NCBI GenBank assembly: GCA_951406725.2 | Contig: OX597816.1 | Span: 134,416,001 to 134,480,000 of the forward strand | Origin: Octopus vulgaris | Lineage: Eukaryota | Reading direction: 5' to 3' | Length of the DNA stretch: 64,000 nucleotides | In this document: positions 2,890 through 47,574 of the stretch, one piece after another | Numbering within the stretch: position 1 is the stretch's first letter | How the letters are laid out: each line of letters opens with the position of its first letter | Made by a program: the position numbers and the translations under genes | The notes under the pieces: model-generated | Seen by the model: only the letters and a program-made list of their open reading frames with translations | The model's database searches: none | Told to the model about the DNA's origin: nothing

Positions 2890-4610
2890 AAGTAGTAACA
2901 TTACTACAGAGTAAAATCTATTTGCCAACATAAAGTGGAAATTCTGATTAGGATGGTATTACTACCTTTTTCTGGCTGGCTACCAACGCACAATAATAAG
3001 GATGCAGTTGTGCATCGGCAGCCAGCTGGAAAAGATGTTTCCCTGGGGCTAAAAATGGTAGTAACATCTTCATAATCAGGACTGTCACTTTACATTGGCA
3101 AATAGACTTTACTCTGCATAAATACATATAGACTACCCTACAAAACACCCTAACCAAAAATTACCAGTACTAGATACAGAACTCTGGCTGGAAAGTGTAA
3201 ATAATAAAACCCAAATCCTCCATTCACACTATGCAAAACCTATGGCCTCCAAATACCTGATCCACCAGAACTCAGCTATCACAGACAATGCCAAATTCAA
3301 TATATTGATGGCAGACCTCATCAGAGTAATGAGAAATGTGTCCTGCATGTGCAACCCTACAGAGTTAAAGAGACACATTCAACACTTCGTTCATTGTATG
3401 CAGTTCTCAAGATACAGCCATAAAGAAAGGATCAGAGTATATAAAGGAGCCATGAGGAAATTTGAAACTATCATACATAACAATAGGAATGGGATTTGCC
3501 CACTTTGTAGGAGCAAGTCATGGAATACCATTGAAAGGACTAAGAAGAAAATAGAGAATGCCAATTCATGGTATGATAGCCACAAATACCAGAGTGTCAT
3601 GTTCATTGACACCACCCCTAGAGGCAAATTGGCGTACTGCTTTAGAAGAGCCCTTGACAAAATTAAGGTTGTAGAAAGGCCAGGTAACCCTATCAAATCC
3701 CTAATCGGTAGAACCTACTCTTTTAATAGAACCCCCTGCACTGATAGGAACTGTATTGTATGTAGATTTAGCCCACGAACAAACTGTAAAGCTAGGAATG
3801 TAGTCTATAGTTTAAGATGTACAGAGGGACGGTGCAGAAATAAGACAATGACATATATAGGGGAGACAGCATGGAGCATAGGAAAGAGGGTAAATGAGCA
3901 TTGGAGGGAACTTAAGGAAGAGAAGGGCTCATCAGTTCTTTACCAGCATGCCGAGTGGGAACACGGCCACTCACTCAATAACATAGAAGTTAAAACCTTA
4001 TCCACACATAGAATGGACACAACACTTAGACAAATTACAGAAGCCTAAATAGAAAGCTAGAATGGAATATTAGCACACACCCCACACACACAACAACCTA
4101 TGACAGAATAAGATACTCATAAACTAATAATAATATGAAACTAATACAATAGACAGGTAAATAAATGGAATTAAATAATTATATACATAAACAAAATATA
4201 ATAAATTAAATTAAATTGATACAAAAAAGAAAGAAACAAAAAAGTAAGTAGATAAAAACAAATGAATAAAATAAAAGTAAATTAAACAAACTTGAATAAA
4301 CAGGGGGTACTGATAATGCAGGTACTATACACATTCCTACACACACACTTGCTAAACATAGACACAGAGAGGGATATACGCAAACGCAAATACAACAGGA
4401 GTACAAAATGGCAGATCATTAGGAAGGAGAGACACAAAAAAGAAAGAAAGCAAAGGACCACTGATGAGGTCACAGAAGTGAGATGAAAGAACTCTGGCCG
4501 AAATACAATTAATATGAGATAAAGCTGAAGCAAGTGAATATCAAATATATAGTGTGTGTGTTTTTATTGGTTAAACTGACAACATGACCATCCTCAAATG
4601 TAACAACATA
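2890..4610 (+). mobile_element. 5'-truncated Penelope-like element (RT C-terminus + GIY-YIG), different family from the 39-47 kb element
   Basis: DYP...KLPVLDTELW, HYAKPMAS, CTDRNCIVC, NVVY..RC...C..YIGETA, SVLYQH...H, RQITEA in/near ORF 3242-4048; TA-rich ends. Confidence 0.85.
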
Positions 4611-4629
4611 TATATATATATATATGTGA

Positions 4630-19475: not shown

Positions 19476-20316
19476 AATCAACATCGTATAATTTTAAACA
19501 AACATTGAATACTATTTTAAAATTACTTGAATGAGTTTTCTATCCTTTTAAATTAATTTCCATTTTGATAGGATTTCATTTTATTAGTTTTGAAGCCTAA
19601 CAATAGCTTTTATTCATTTAGATTTTATTTTTCAGTTTCTATAAGTTATCACTTTTTGCTCTTATCTCTAGTTTCTTCTTATCTATTTCCAAAGCATGTT
19701 CTTCAATAACTTTTAGCAACAATTTCCTGGTTATTTATGTCATTAATAGATTTACCTTCATCACTTGCCACCAATTTCATTGACATCTTCCTGCCTTACT
19801 GTAAATACAATTATATTTGCTAACACTTTCATAACTGACAGTTACTAATGGTATGTCTACCATCCTTAAACTGACTGTTGTTAGTAAAGAGTGTTAATAA
19901 GCTAAACTACAAGCAAATTATTATCAATGATAATGAAATAAATTTTAATGAAAATTCATTAGTAACTGTCAGTTATGAAAGTGTTAGCAAATATAATTGT
20001 ATTTACAGTAAGGCAGGAAGATGTCAATGAAATTGGTGGCAAGTGATGAAGGTAAATCTATTAATGACATAAATAACCAGGAAATAGTTGCTAAAAATTA
20101 TTGAAGAAGGTGCTTTGGAAATAGCTAAGAAGTAAGAAACTAAAAATAAAAGTAAAAGGTGATAACTTATAGAAACTGAAAAATAAAATCTAAATGAATA
20201 AAAGCTATTGTTAAGCTTCAAAACTGATAATGGAAATTATTTTAAAGGATAGAAAACTCATTCAAGTAATTTTAAAATACTATTTAATTTTTGTTTAAAA
20301 TTACACACTGTTGATT
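19476..20316. repeat. Long inverted repeat between the convergent gene ends
   Basis: Arms 19476-19850 and 19957-20316; 19722-19850 / 19957-20085 is a perfect 129-bp match. Confidence 0.95.
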
Positions 20317-39048: not shown

Positions 39049-39083
<35 letters not shown>

Positions 39084-39087
<4 letters not shown>

Positions 39088-39997
39088 ATCAAAATAAAAA
39101 CATGATGCGAAGGATTCAGCAGTACATATGTTTCGGGCCTTTATTAGACAGATTTATAACAATGCATAATGTATGTCTGTGGCTTTCTTCAGCCGCGCAC
39201 AACAGCTTCCACAAGGACATGTGTTACATCAAAAGTTCTTGGTTGGGGATGCAAATCCTCTCATTCGCGTACGACATAATGCGGCAGCAGCATAGAATTG
39301 AAGCGTCCATCTCTTTCTTCTCTCAATGTAGAATGAGGAAATTTGGATGTTGAAGTAATGTAAATAAATAAATACATATATAGACGTGAAGATGGAGGGG
39401 TGAGAATTCAGGACGAGGGATAAAAAAATGTATAAAAAGCGTAAGTATAGAAAAATATAAAAATGTAGAGTATAAAGATATAAAGGGATATAAGGAGATG
39501 TAAAGGGGGTATAAAGAATATAAAGAGATATAAAGAAATATAAATAAATGTAAAGGCATAAGGTTATAAAGTAAAAATAGAAATAGAAATAAAAGTAAAG
39601 AGAATAAATCGAAGTAGAATAAAGGTAAAAATAAAAGTAAAAATAAAAATAAAATAAAATAAAATAAAATAAAAATATAATTTGGTAAAGTTTAACATGA
39701 GATGAAGGTGGTTGAAAGTTAGAGGTGTGTGTTAAAGGTGCCCACGTAGGGGCGGGCGGGGGGAACTGAAAATTGGAAGGGTGGGAAGTGGAGTTTGGCG
39801 GTGTGCGTTCAACATCCGAGTTAGAAATGTGAAAGGGTATAGATATAGGGAAATAAAGAGACTATATAGGAAGGATATGGGTGTAGGGGAAGAAATATGT
39901 AGGGAAAAGAAGACATATATGGGAGACAAAATTTGTATATATAGGAGGAAAATGCAGGGAAACATATATGCACATACACACACCCACACACACACAC
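39084..39997 (-). repeat. Inverted, internally deleted pLTR copy
   Basis: 39084-39599 is the reverse complement of ~41632-42143; 39600-39997 is the reverse complement of ~40212-40604. Confidence 0.9.
39119..39196 (-). ncRNA. Type I hammerhead ribozyme in inverted pLTR (two substitutions)
   Basis: GCGG-CUGAAGA-aAGCC...GGCC-c-GAAA-CAUAUGUA^CUGC; stem II G>A mismatch, stem I C>U wobble. Confidence 0.75.
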
Positions 39998-42218
39998 ACC
40001 ATCCTGTATACACAAACTTATTAATACTTTCAAATACTACAAAGCTTAGGTTATTATACCAACTCCCCCATGCAATTTCCTCCCACCCGGTGCAACCGGT
40101 CGGCTCCAGCACATCCCGCTTTCCTATATGTGCGTGTATATGCGTATATGTGTGCGTATATATATGTATGTGCACATATGTGTACGTATATGTATATATA
40201 TATATATATGTGCGTGTGTGTGGGGGGGGGTGTATGTGCATATATGTTTCCCTGCATTTTCCTCCTATATATACAAATTTTGTCTCCCATATATGTCTTC
40301 TTTTCCCTACATATTTCTTCCCCTACACCCATATCCTTCCTATATAGTCTCTTTATTTCCCTATATCTATACCCTTTCACATTTCTAACTCGGATGTTGA
40401 ACGCACACCGCCAAACTCCACTTCCCACCCTTCCAATTTTCAGTTCCCCCCGCCCGCCCCTACGTGGGCACCTTTAACACACACCTCTAACTTTCAACCA
40501 CCTTCATCTCATGTTAAACTTTACCAAATTATATTTTTATTTTATTTTATTTTATTTTTATTTTTACTTTTATTTTTACCTTTATTCTACTTCGATTTAT
40601 TCTCATTTTTATTTTCATCCCTTATCTTAATTCTTATAATTTTTATAGTTTTTATATTTCATTTCTAACCTTTACATTGTATTTCTTATTTTATACTGTA
40701 TTTCTTACTTTTATTTCTAATTTTTACCCTTACCCTCATTCTTACCCCTAACTTATCGCTTTATATCTCTATATATGTCTATTTTTTTTGCTTATCCCTT
40801 ATTTACTTACCTATGGATCCACTTTATGATTATATGAGCGTCCGTGTACGTATGTATACGTATACATATATGTACATATGTACGAGTAAACACCTACGTC
40901 TGGATGTACATACCCCGTATTTCTTTTTTTACATGTTTTCTTATATTCATATGTTTACACCTATTTGTATACATCTTTTAATATCTTATAGCTATACCCA
41001 TATGCGCGTATGTCTGTGTGTGTGTATGTAAGTGTATATGTGCACGCACATATGCACACACAGCCGTGTGTGCGTGCACGTGTAGACGTGAGTGCGCGAT
41101 TCTTTACATACGTTCTTATATACATCCTTTAATATCTTATATCTAAACCTGAAAGCGTGGGCATATGCGTATGTGTATGTAAAGATGGGCGCACGTATGT
41201 ACATATGGGTGTGTACACGTATAATGTCCGTGTATACATGCGGATATTCTGTTGTATGTATGTATATGTACGCGCGTGCGTGTGGGTGTGTGTATGTTTA
41301 TGTACATGTTTACACGTGAGTGCGTGTGTATGCTTATAGGCTTGGAGGCGTATATGTACGCGTGTATATGGGTGTATGTATCCATGATGGTATGTATGTA
41401 CTAGATGACCAATTAATTCAAAGAACCAGATTAAACGCTCAACAGCTCTGATTTACAACACATTAGGTCCCCAGACGACACTGTTGATTTATTGACACCC
41501 AAAACTTCTACAACTAAATTTTATCAATCTCCTGACCACCATGTTTGGTCCGTAACCTCTATACATCCCTTATCTTTATATTTTTTTACATTTTTATCAT
41601 GTTTATTCCTATTTTTATTTTTTTACTTTTTACTTTTATTTCTATTTCTATTTTTACTTTATAACCTTATGCCTTTACATTTATTTATATTTCTTTATAT
41701 CTCTTTATATTCTTTATACCCCCTTTACATCTCCTTATATCCCTTTATATCTTTATACTCTACATTTTTATATTTTTCTATACTTACGCTTTTTATACAT
41801 TTTTTATCCCTCGTCCTGAATTCTCGCCCCTCCATCTTCACGTCTATATATGTATTTATTTATTTACATTACTTCAACATCCAAATTTCCTCATTCTACA
41901 TTGAGAGAAGAAAGAGATGGACACTTCAATTCTATGCTGCTGCCGCATTATGTCGTACGCGAATGAGAGGATTTGCATCCCCAACCAAGAACTTTTGATG
42001 TAACACATGTCCTTGTGGAAGCTGTTGTGCGCGGCTGAAGAAGGCCACAGACATACATTATGCATTGTTATAAATCTGTCTAATAAAGGCCCGAAACATA
42101 TGTACCGCTGAATCCTTCGCATCATGTTTTTATTTTGATCAATTTACTCCACCACCTACACCACCAAACGGTATACACAGGTGCTTATAATTATCAAGTA
42201 CTCACCCCGAATTTCTAT
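39998..42218 (+). repeat. PLE pseudo-LTR, upstream direct copy (starts with the last ~50 nt of the ORF)
   Basis: Matches 44755-46978 at an offset of ~4757-4759 with only a handful of differences. Confidence 0.95.
42031..42108 (+). ncRNA. Type I hammerhead ribozyme in pLTR
   Basis: GCGG-CUGAAGA-a-GGCC...GGCC-c-GAAA-CAUAUG-UA^CCGC; stem I GCGG/CCGC, palindromic stem III ACAUAUGU, GUA cleavage triplet. Confidence 0.85.
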
Positions 42219-42295
42219 ACTCAACTCACCTACGTTGTCACTAGGATCTGATCCCACGTAACCGCGACAACCTTTAGTACTTGACGAACCCAAGC

Positions 42296-44806
42296 ATGAA
42301 GATTCAAAGGATTCACACTAACTTCTCTCCCAAGGACATACCTCTCCACTCCGACAAAACTTACACGACGACCCTCATCCACCGGACCACAGACTTTATT
42401 AGAAGAATCAGGTGGGCGGCCTACCATTTCGATAACCCGGGGAAAAGCAACCCCAACTCTAACCAAGAAGAAATAGCACACAGGAAGATATTTAAAAGCA
42501 GAAGAAACCCACCCTCTAACTACGCACTGGAAAATTTTGAAAAAGACTTAATCGACCTCATTACCAACATCAACATTAGTAAACATAAGACCATTTCCAA
42601 CACCCACTTAAGGAGCCTTAAAGATTTCCTGCATTCACTTAGGAACGATGATAGTCTTATCATACCCGCCGACAAGACTGGGAACTGGTATAGGCTAGAC
42701 TACCAAACCTACAAATCGCTCATCATGAGGGAACTTAGCAAAAAATATAAAACTACTTCTACGGATAACCTTAAGGAAATTAACTACAAAATCAAGGAAG
42801 TTATGAGCAAATTAGACCTCCTGGACAGAACAGAACCTATTAAACCACAAGTACCCAAAATTACTATTAAAGACCATAAGAAAGACTTCCCGGATAATGT
42901 AGGAGTACGATTAATCTGTCCGACTAAATCGGATATCGGCAGACTTAGCAAGACTATCCTGGACAAGGTGATCCCACGCATCAAACCCCACATCCCACTC
43001 CAACTATGGATTAACACCGACGATGTGCTAGAATGGTTTAACACTATCACCAATAGGCCCAACTACTCATTCATCCAATTCGACATAGCTAGCTACTACG
43101 CCAGTATATCCCCCATCTTACTTAACAAATCCCTTATATTTGCCCGCAACCTTTCACTCATAGACAGAGAAAAAATTGACATAATACTATTAGCTAGAAA
43201 AACCATAATAGAATTCGACGGTAGACTCTGGACCAGATCCGATACCCCCGACAATTTTGATGTGGCTATGGGCTCGAGCGATTCAGCTCAGGTGACTGAC
43301 TTGGTCGGGGCCTACCTGCTCAAGAAGCTTTTCTCCGAGGTACCGGATCTTCAGAGGGGTCTATACAGAGACGACGCTCTCTTCATATACCCCACCAACA
43401 ATAGGAGTAAACAAGAAAGAATTAGGAAAAAGATCAGGCTTTTTTTCAAATCCTTCAATCTTAAACTAGAATTTATGACCAATACTAAAATAGTAAACTT
43501 CTTAGATGTTACGTTAGACTTGAATAAGCACCTTCACCACCCGTATAGGAAACCCGAATAAACTACCAAATACATCCATACCTCTTCCAACCATCCACCC
43601 TGTATAATTAGCACCACGGTCCAAGCCATCTCAGACAGACTTACAAAACTATCCTCTAATAGAGAAATTTTCAATAATCACGCACAACGCTACAACCAGG
43701 CTCTCTATAGTGCCGGGTATAACCAGAGAATATCATATGTAGACCACCCGGGAACGTCCGTCGGACATAAAACTCCCAATTATAATCGAACTCAGCACTC
43801 AACTCACACTAGCGATAATTCTAATTTAAACTCCATACAACGTATAGGAAATAGGCGAACTAATAGAATAGCACACAATAGCAACCCTCCCGACGAGAGC
43901 AATATAGATCCTATTAGGAGAAATAGAAGGGATAATAGTAGATTACGCAAATATATATGGTTCAACATACCTTACAACTTAGCAGTTAGGGGTAAGTTAT
44001 GTAAGAGAATATTCTCTATCATTTCCAACAACTTCCCACCCACCCATAAGTATAGAAGTATCTTCTCCAACAAAACCATTAGGATTTCCTACTCTACCCT
44101 GCCCAACATGAGCTGCCTCATAGCTAAACATAACTATATTAATATTAGAACAGCTAGATCAAGAGCAAACTATAGCGACCAACAGAACCCCCCTCATCTA
44201 GATAGTAGACAATATAACCAGACTGGCAGCCATACTACCCAAACAGTTAGTAATAACACCCGCCAACACAACAGAGGAAATACTACACCCATCAACAACC
44301 AGGAGGATATCAACGCCCCCACTCGTATTGCAACACCTCCGCCTGGGATTAGCAGCACACGACCGAATAACGCAATGCAATGCAACTTCAGATGTGCATC
44401 AGAGTGCCCGCTACAGGGCGCATGTAGGGCGAAAAACGTAATATATTCATGTGAGGTGAGTACCCAGTTTAACGCACTCACCTACATAGGGTGCTCAACC
44501 TCCTGGAAATCCAGATACTACAACCACCGGTCCTCGCTGAAACACAGACATAAGGCTAACAGCACCTCCCTTTCTAAAAGAATTTGGGAATTAAAAGACA
44601 AATGCATAGGCTTCAAACTCAGGTGGTCCATCATCGGATCAGCTGCACCTTATTTAAATAATAGAGCAGGATGCCAACTATGTTGTGTAGAACTCCTGAA
44701 CATCTTGAAATTCAAAGACAAACACAATCTTATTAACAAAAGGTCAGAGTTCAAACCATCCTGTATACACAAACTTATTAATACTTTCAAATACTACAAA
44801 GCTTAG
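42296..44806 (+). pseudogene. PLE reverse transcriptase + GIY-YIG endonuclease ORF (~836 codons) with one premature TAA at 43559-43561
   Basis: Motifs ADKTGN, FDIASYYASI, MGSSDSAQVTDLVG, GLYRDD, VNFLDVTL, SNHPP, IWFN.PY, C..RC..CPL.G.C, VIY...YIG, RYYNH, CQLC..E, NKRSE..C.H. The frame is continuous across the TAA. Confidence 0.93.
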
Positions 44807-46978
44807 GTTATTATACCAACTCCCCCATGCAATTTCCTCCCACCCGGTGCAACCAGTCGGCTCCAGCACATCCCGCTTTCCTATATGTGCGTGTATATGC
44901 GTATATGTGTGTGTATATATATGTATGTGCACATATGTGTACGTATATGTATATATATATATATGTGTGTGTGTGTGTGGGGGGGGGGGTGTATGTGCAT
45001 ATATGTTTCCCTGCATTTTCCTCCTATATATACAAATTTTGTCTCCCATATATGTCTTCTTTTCCCTACATATTTCTTCCCCTACACCCATATCCTTCCT
45101 ATATAGTCTCTTTATTTCCCTATATCTATACCCTTTCACATTTCTAACTCGGATGTTGAACGCACACCGCCAAACTCCACTTCCCACCCTTCCAATTTTC
45201 AGTTCCCCCCGCCCGCCCCTACGTGGGCACCTTTAACACACACCTCTAACTTTCAACCACCTTCATCTCATGTTAAACTTTACCAAATTATATTTTTATT
45301 TTATTTTATTTTATTTTTATTTTTACTTTTATTTTTACCTTTATTCTACTTCGATTTATTCTCATTTTTATTTTCATCCCTTATCTTAATTCTTATAATT
45401 TTTATAGTTTTTATATTTCATTTCTAACCTTTACATTGTATTTCTTATTTTATACTGTATTTCTTACTTTTATTTCTAATTTTTACCCTTACCCTCATTC
45501 TTACCCCTAACTTATCGCTTTATATCTCTATATATGTCTATTTTTTTTGCTTATCCCTTATTTACTTACCTATGGATCCACTTTATGATTATATGAGCGT
45601 CCGTGTACGTATGTATACGTATACATATATGTACATATGTACGAGTAAACACCTACGTCTGGATGTACATACCCCGTATTTCTTTTTTTACATGTTTTCT
45701 TATATTCATATGTTTACACCTATTTGTATACATCTTTTAATATCTTATAGCTATACCCATATGCGCGTATGTCTGTGTGTGTGTATGTAAGTGTATATGT
45801 GCACGCACATATGCACACACAGCCGTGTGTGCGTGCACGTGTAGACGTGAGTGCGCGATTCTTTACATACGTTCTTATATACATCCTTTAATATCTTATA
45901 TCTAAACCTGAAAGCGTGGGCATATGCGTATGTGTATGTAAAGATGGGCGCACGTATGTACATATGGGTGTGTACACGTATAATGTCCGTGTATACATGC
46001 GGATATTCTGTTGTATGTATGTATATGTACGCGCGTGCGTGTGGGTGTGGGTGTGTTTATGTACATGTTTACACGTGAGTGCGTGTGTATGCTTATAGGC
46101 TTGGAGGCGTATATGTACGCGTGTATATGGGTGTATGTATCCATGATGGTATGTATGTACCAGATGACCAATTAATTCAAAGAACCAGATTAAACGCTCA
46201 ACAGCTCTGATTTACAACACATTAGGTCCCCAGACGACACTGTTGATTTATTGACACCCAAAACTTCTACAACTAAATTTTATCAATCTCCTGACCACCA
46301 TGTTTGGTCCGTAACCTCTATACATCCCTTATCTTTATATTTTTTTACATTTTTATCATGTTTATTCCTATTTTTATTTTTTTACTTTTTACTTTTATTT
46401 CTATTTCTATTTTTACTTTATAACCTTATGCCTTTACATTTATTTATATTTCTTTATATCTCTTTATATTCTTTATACCCCCTTTACATCTCCTTATATC
46501 CCTTTATATCTTTATACTCTACATTTTTATATTTTTCTATACTTACGCTTTTTATACATTTTTTATTCCTCGTCCTGAATTCTCGCCCCTCCATCTTCAC
46601 GTCTATATATGTATTTATTTATTTACATTACTTCAACATCCAAATTTCCTCATTCTACATTGAGAGAAGAAAGAGATGGACGCTTCAATTCTATGCTGCT
46701 GCCGCATTATGTCGTACGCGAATGAGAGGATTTGCATCCCCAACCAAGAACTTTTGATGTAACACATGTCCTTGTGGAAGCTGTTGTGCGCGGCTGAAGA
46801 AGGCCACAGACATACATTATGCATTGTTATAAATCTGTCTAATAAAGGCCCGAAACATATGTACCGCTGAATCCTTCGCATCATGTTTTTATTTTGATCA
46901 ATTTACTCCACCACCTACACCACCAAACGGTATACACAGGTGCTTATAATTATCAAGTACTCACCCCGAATTTTCTAT
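44755..46978 (+). repeat. PLE pseudo-LTR, downstream direct copy
   Basis: Near-identical to 39998-42218; ends in (TA)n. Confidence 0.95.
46790..46867 (+). ncRNA. Type I hammerhead ribozyme in pLTR (second copy)
   Basis: Identical to 42031-42108. Confidence 0.85.
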
Positions 46979-47574
46979 ATATATATATATATATATATAC
47001 ATATATTTATTGTAATTGTAATATTTGGTCAACAACTGATGAGGGTTTGAAGATTATCTGCATTCTGTTATATGTGTGGTCATTTTCCCCCTTTTTCCTG
47101 TAAATTTCTTTGTCCTCACTGTGCTACATATTCCTTATTTATATATATATATTTATATCATCAATGTCATCATCATCATCATCATTTAATGTCTATCTTC
47201 CATACTGGCATGGATTGGACTGTTTGACACGAGCTGGAAAGCCAGAGGAATGCACCAAGTTCCACCGACTGTTTTGGCATGGTTTTTATGGCTGGGTGCT
47301 CTTCCTAATACCAGCCACTTTACATAGTAGACTGGGTACTTTTTAGATGGTTCTAGCACCAATGAGGTTTTTACAGCTTCACGGTTGTGAACAAGCAGCA
47401 CGATCTTACAAGCAATGTCGTTTGTTTACAGTCATCCATGAAAAACATGTCTGGCCATGAGAAATATTACCTTGCTTGGAAATATGTGAGGTTGGTAGCA
47501 GGAGGGGCATCCAACTGTAAAAATCTGCCTCAACAAATTCTGCCTGACCTTTGTGGACATTAACTGATGATGGC

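Follow-up and report, generated by a model that had tools for sequence, protein, structure and literature searches.

The question raised by this locus is whether the hammerhead motif repeated in its Penelope-like element (PLE) cuts the element's RNA, and whether such a cut makes the template from which new copies are inserted. The window analysed is a whole 64,000-nt stretch of Octopus vulgaris contig OX597816.1 (assembly GCA_951406725.2, forward-strand positions 134,416,001 to 134,480,000), and all coordinates count from its first letter. The original prediction placed an intact hammerhead with a palindromic stem III in a pseudo-LTR (pLTR), and proposed that two identical copies could pair through this stem and excise a unit RNA. 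The features on which the answer depends are collected in Table 1.

Table 1. Positions in the window of the hammerhead copies, their parts and flanks, and the element that carries them.
Feature	Position	Strand	Remark
Type I hammerhead, 5' pLTR copy	42031..42108	+	putative cut after GUA at 42104
Palindromic stem III (ACATATGT)	42096..42103	+	self-duplex -7.0 kcal/mol
3' pLTR hammerhead, identical	46790..46867	+	putative cut after 46863
Third hammerhead copy, in inverted piece	39119..39196	-	2 substitutions, the first disrupting a stem II pair and the other leaving a G-U in stem I
Domain II, 51 nt: A42042, GGCC/GGCC helix, 41-nt weakly paired loop, C42092	42042..42092	+	
AATAAA inside domain II, 17 nt before cut	42082..42087	+	sole AATAAA of the 2228-nt pLTR; also 46841-46
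Predicted upstream hairpin sequestering stem I 5' strand and core start	42020..42036	+	-6.5 kcal/mol, z -0.96
Weak AC-rich hairpin between both insertion end points (optional 'tail' region)	42153..42183	+	-7.2 kcal/mol, z -0.82, no better than chance
5' pseudo-LTR, the upstream copy, shortened at its 5' end	39995..42219	+	99.4% identity with 44752-46979 (2228 columns)
3' pseudo-LTR: last ORF codons and 2.1-kb low-complexity 3' UTR	44752..46979	+	ends at (TA)n ~116 nt past cut
Inverted pLTR copy, internal deletion (41570-42146 joined to 40210-40608)	39081..39999	-	3' end 42 nt past cut, at (TA)n
RT and C-terminal GIY-YIG-type ORF, 836 codons	42296..44806	+	in-frame TAA at 43559-61

The identity of the element comes from homologues and motifs: Pfam gave no family for either half of the open-reading frame (ORF) at E 0.01, nor for its C-terminal parts at E 1, and a PDB sequence search with the profile of ORF alignment A1 gave no match. 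The first 421 residues, searched among longer proteins, found 66 matches at E <=0.001, the best named one being from Argonauta hians, and the frame reads YRDD at residue 357 and ends in a VIY...YIG, R, H, E, N pattern that aligns with its relatives. On these sequence grounds the element is Penelope-like (C-terminal EN+), nearest to the Hydra clade, and inserted in (TA)n. In a quick tree of 32 rows, which included no named Neptune, Nematis or Poseidon references, the window's protein grouped with 29 Hydra-type rows at an SH-aLRT of 100, away from two distant matches, and lay within a long-branched set with P0001-P0004. The DKG motif is DKT (residue 126), DK[TS] being present in 102 of 103 relatives, and CQLC..E at 793 with CIH at 823 places CxxC and CxH around the E and N, with no CCHH seen by eye in alignment A2. 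RWK reads RWA, with R39 and W40 invariant in alignment A1 and RWK in 62 of 103 relatives, and the CxCX5C linker found in 79 of 103 relatives reads CNFRCASEC, its outer cysteines aligned and invariant and its second absent. Because of the RWA and the missing second cysteine, we file the element as Hydra-like and not as a formal member of the Hydra clade. A single HSP crosses the in-frame stop in 103 of 103 relatives, which makes the TAA a probable defect of this copy or of the assembly; it interrupts the ORF that had been predicted to lie whole in the excised unit. Elsewhere in the window, a second PLE remnant (3242-4048, forward strand) holds a thumb-like region, a C..C..C linker and a YIG endonuclease motif; we take this remnant to be Neptune-like. 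A degenerate hammerhead-like match at 4461 and a (TA)n run near 4610, inside 4584-4625, come after it. Nested long inverted repeats at 19581-20230 (179 nt at 97%, 97 nt at 93%) form a fold-back of ~650 nt, a MITE-like or hairpin insertion. The dispersed repeats of the window resemble octopus SINEs, which together with the Argonauta hians match suggests that the host is a cephalopod.

Every hammerhead landmark predicted for the 5' pLTR was found where it had been claimed. GCGG (42031-34) and CTGAAGA (42035-41) are followed by A42042 and GGCC (42043-46), a 41-nt loop (42047-87, with ACAGA at 42047-51 and TCTGT at 42075-79), GGCC (42088-91) and C42092, and on the 3' side by GAAA (42093-96), GTA (42102-04) and CCGC (42105-08). 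CUGANGA, GAAA and a NUH triplet are thus all present and in the order of a type I core, around which stand three stems, the open end being stem I (4 bp) and stem II also having 4 bp. The same 78-mer recurs 4759 nt downstream, the positions of the pLTR hammerheads and of both predicted cuts (after 42104 and 46863) hold, and the distance from cut to ATG, put at ~190 nt, is 191 nt by count. A third copy, slightly decayed and on the minus strand (39119-39196), had been overlooked in the prediction. We built a descriptor of the type I motif from its core, C15.2-G16.2, a near-palindromic stem III and both other stems; it matched twice in the window, each time on the sense strand, and not once in 50 block shuffles of it, so the motif is not a chance occurrence. 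Rfam gave no match at gathering score in the whole window, nor up to E 10 in 41800-42400, a blank that speaks neither for nor against the motif. The hammerhead motif in the pLTRs of this element is real. The A-C pair proposed at the base of stem II is one of two registers that can be drawn (-9.5 kcal/mol), the alternative being an unpaired A with G10.1-C11.1 and a bulged C (-6.1 kcal/mol).

To place the motif among relatives we kept 78 loci (L001-L078) from 401 confirmed metagenome stretches, none of them from the window's own subclade (the window with P0001-P0004). Seventy sense-strand matches were found in 57 of the 78 loci, with none on the antisense strand and none in 10 shuffles; as the descriptor required a near-palindromic stem III, the palindromicity of these relatives is built in. 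Across 53 distinct related motifs the end bases of stem II were U-U in 19, G-C in 18 and A-C in three, two of the last being an unpaired A with G-C. The window's 191 nt between cut and ATG compares with a median of 153 nt in 32 5' copies of relatives, but its stop-to-cut distance of 2057 nt stands against a median of 188 nt and a maximum of 549 nt in 33 cases, and its unit of 4759 nt against 2362-2847 nt in 12 related loci (L053, with two different motifs 173 nt apart, excluded). There is thus nothing unusual in a palindromic stem III, a stem I of few pairs or a mismatch at the base of stem II, whereas the long arm described below and the long 3' UTR are peculiarities of the window. Of the 70 matches, 14 have a (TA)n run within 400 nt, and it begins 31-140 nt past the cut. 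At 33-57 nt after the cut, immediately past the common (TA)n-joined end, 40 of 47 distinct related motifs have an inverted GCTC-N5..25-GAGC(AC) motif (0.72 expected; six of the 53 motifs, with <110 nt of flank, are dropped from this count), which may be the clade's tail or RT-initiation hairpin; the exact motif is absent after the cut in the window's element. Viral contigs held no relatives of the element, and genome contigs held three loci (L079-L081), all with a short domain II where the motif was found; their PLEs are of animal type and bear several hammerheads, the contigs belong to a single bacterial MAG, and eukaryotic contamination is likely. Hammerheads with palindromes of 4-6 nt lie beside Hydra-type ORFs at L017:2826, L053:136, L061:319, L015:2400 and L080:9423, and likely represent termini of further PLE families that inserted into those same (TA)n runs; the three whose flanks could be checked (L017, L053 and L061) lack the GCTC...GAGC motif.

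The described systems give a similar picture. Hydra-clade hammerheads listed in file S2 of Craig et al. (2021, PMC8557442) are, as in the window, of type I, located in the pLTR on the sense strand, with a near-palindromic stem III and a (TA)n target, and by our own count the stem II base is mismatched in 14 of 26 of these rows, as it is in the window in the A-C register. The same 26 rows have a domain II of at most 26 nt (own count) against 51 nt in the window, and units of the Hydra clade are given as generally <3 kb. A 5' inverted truncated copy like that of the window is noted there for Penelope-13_HM. Hydra-1_Obim, an octopus element in file S1 of that paper, has a different hammerhead sequence and by eye belongs to a different family, while the hammerhead of one surveyed locus (L027), whose protein is 32% identical to the window's over 827 columns, is by eye identical to that of Penelope-1_NV. 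The minimal PLE hammerheads of Cervera and de la Pena (2014, PMC4209133) share with the window a helix I of 4-5 bp, a palindromic helix III and an unpaired nucleotide after A9, but the window has a longer palindrome in stem III and a far larger loop II, and its G10.1-C11.1 forms only with a bulged C. By title and abstract, only PMC8557442 treats PLE hammerheads among the literature matches listed for Octopus, Penelope and hammerhead.

The single oddity of the window's motif among the relatives examined is its second arm, about twice the length of theirs. Domain II of the 53 distinct related motifs measures 10-25 nt (median 17), and a relaxed scan that allowed up to 150 nt found none above 26 nt across 81 loci. 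The prediction of a large structured loop II thus holds for its size, but the structure is weak. The fold of domain II has an energy of -9.6 kcal/mol (z -1.30), which 16 of 200 shuffles match, and the ACAGA/UCUGU helix has a pair probability of ~0.55 beside a rival AGACA/UGUCU register at ~0.3. The length is not unprecedented in PLEs, since PLE-X1_sMoe in file S2 of PMC8557442 has a domain II of 54 nt (own count); that element is an EN-minus one of a plant, with a 9-bp stem II, and is flagged non-canonical. An intron in loop II was considered and rejected on inspection of the sequence, the only GT..AG pair spanning ~22 nt. The length of domain II probably reflects growth of a peripheral arm that the ribozyme tolerates, and as neither viral nor genome contigs yielded DNA of the window's own subclade, a long arm may be common there.

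Folding shows how the motif could act. In isolation, stems I and II form with a probability of ~0.77 and stem III in cis with ~0.23, stem III having 2 bp in cis and 8 bp in trans; the fold of the whole motif has a z of +0.28. A pair of 78-mers is most stable as a double hammerhead, at -35.4 kcal/mol compared with 2 x -11.8 kcal/mol, which bears out the predicted dimer topology through stem III. Natural flank changes this: with 15, 30 and 50 nt the constrained double hammerhead reaches -42.4, -54.2 and -65.2 kcal/mol against -47.8, -58.0 and -72.8 kcal/mol for the best two-strand fold, and thus lies 3.8-7.6 kcal/mol above it, partly because the hairpin upstream captures the 5' strand of stem I. 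With at least 50 nt of flank the pair probability of stem I is near zero. Neither Mg2+ nor tertiary contacts enter these energies, nor does the penalty for joining sites 4.76 kb apart. Taken with the weak stem III, the rival folds in flank fit slow or assisted cleavage.

The ends of the insertion bear on the template. A partial tandem with pLTRs, an inverted 5' copy, an optional tail and a hammerhead in the pLTR are all seen here, and are standard PLE anatomy according to PMC8557442. The direct part of the insertion measures 6985 nt, or 1.47 units, and the pLTRs differ by 10 substitutions, too few to judge RNA editing as the source of the A/G differences. Both outer ends abut (TA)n, at +42 and ~+116 from the cut, each with a short TA microhomology, and not at the ribozyme cut. 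An insertion of 1.47 units that ends beyond the cut on either side could not be copied in one pass from a linear RNA cleaved by both ribozymes. An uncut multi-copy RNA or a circle can, and the anatomy fits either. The tail of ~74 nt is longer than the 30-40 nt described for PLEs. PAc, a Poseidon element of Anolis (Frangieh et al. 2024, PMC11167929), is alike in having its hammerhead upstream of two 3' end points that bracket an AC-rich stretch and in its AT-rich target, but belongs to another clade, and its ribozyme overlaps the start codon whereas the window's cut lies upstream of it. For PAc, the one PLE reconstituted in vitro, that study reports that cleavage needed protein, that uncut RNA is the dominant substrate, and that reverse transcription starts at two internal sites, which explains the tail; the window's two ends around its AC-rich hairpin agree with such two-site internal initiation.

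Taking these results together, we consider it probable that this Hydra-like Penelope element carries, in both pLTRs and in its inverted piece, a type I minimal hammerhead that cuts after GUA (42104, 46863) only slowly, when ACAUAUGU-paired or protein-assisted. What counts for this from the relatives is the conservation of the motif type on the sense strand, and the biochemical precedents are a Poseidon-clade element and the S. mansoni and D. virilis motifs, not Hydra elements; a minimal PLE hammerhead had no activity as a monomer and low activity as a dimer in vitro (PMC4209133). Two copies would pair through the palindrome, or the element's protein would aid folding, and the slow cut would follow without setting the ends of new insertions. 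Reverse transcription would likely begin internally, at the two sites downstream of the ribozyme, on a template with a continuous ribozyme site, either uncut multi-copy read-through RNA or a re-ligated circle. The window's own copy would make no full-length protein without readthrough and would need protein from another copy. A reading closer to the original prediction, in which two hammerheads pair through stem III and excise the 4759-nt unit RNA, with a circle as the template, appears to us unlikely, though excision of such an RNA is possible. In its favour, two isolated motifs reach their lowest energy as a double hammerhead, copying around a circle would yield an insertion of 1.47 units whose cut sites are intact, and a circle was proposed as the PLE template, with the dimer model, in PMC4209133, so that the idea of dimer cleavage is already published and is not new. 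Tandem read-through RNA, however, explains the same anatomy, natural flanks let other folds win, RNA excised from this copy would hold a premature stop, and in PAc uncut RNA predominates as substrate with no RNA-seq reads ending at the cut (PMC11167929). A further view, which we judge improbable, is that the ribozyme is dead in this family and copied passively with the pLTR, its activity having been lost through the upstream hairpin, the loop of 41 nt and the A-C pair at the foot of stem II. The loss of stem I pairing in flank would fit it, as would a domain II twice the size of any of the 53 related motifs, the absence of the post-cut GCTC...GAGC element, and the dispensability of hammerheads in Naiad elements (PMC8557442) and for PAc insertion in vitro (PMC11167929). 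Yet the core positions, the GUA triplet, stem I and the perfect palindrome are all intact in a lineage whose protein shares only 32-37% identity over its length with the five relatives compared, which points to selection.

A different role for the long arm is suggested by its AATAAA, which falls in a predicted unpaired bulge of domain II and is followed, ~20-30 nt past the cut, by a T-rich run (42120-42140). We hold it quite improbable that domain II was enlarged to display this as a polyadenylation signal, so that the ribozyme and the host's 3'-end processing would vie for almost one and the same site and leave either a polyadenylated mRNA or a cyclic-phosphate unit RNA, and very improbable that the arm grew to turn the pLTR into a switch, with polyadenylation by the host and self-cleavage of the dimer contending for one 3' end and yielding mRNA or a circular 4.76-kb template. 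Such a placement has a chance of ~0.014 by local shuffling, but the signal was spotted post hoc, and shuffling just the loop produces an AATAAA in 8% of cases. Among the 53 distinct related motifs, 17 have an AATAAA in the first 40 nt past the cut, mostly at +1 to +8, against 3.5 expected, and a signal near the ribozyme may thus be a habit of the clade; these sequences are not independent, however, and an AATAAA before the cut occurs in only one of the 53. Both insertion ends lie past the point at which poly(A) addition would be expected, so the template escaped cutting at that point, and the case is built on a single member of the family. Literature matches listed for Penelope pLTR hammerheads, from a coverage that stops short of subscription journals, make no mention of AATAAA. 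The only other sense AATAAA of the element (43557-43562) contains the in-frame stop of the ORF. If the polyadenylation reading were true, the long arm and its AAUAAA would tie ribozyme cleavage to host 3'-end processing in a retroelement; the signal also predicts poly(A) ends a few bases from the ribozyme cut, which would confound mapping of the cut by RNA ends.

Slow or assisted cleavage remains our preferred account, and the element adds one family to a described class, canonical hammerheads being reported as universal in the Hydra clade, an octopus member included. As a young single insertion with three ribozyme copies and two different 3' end points, it makes a tidy test object. The ends of this insertion already exclude a linear ribozyme-cut monomer as its template.
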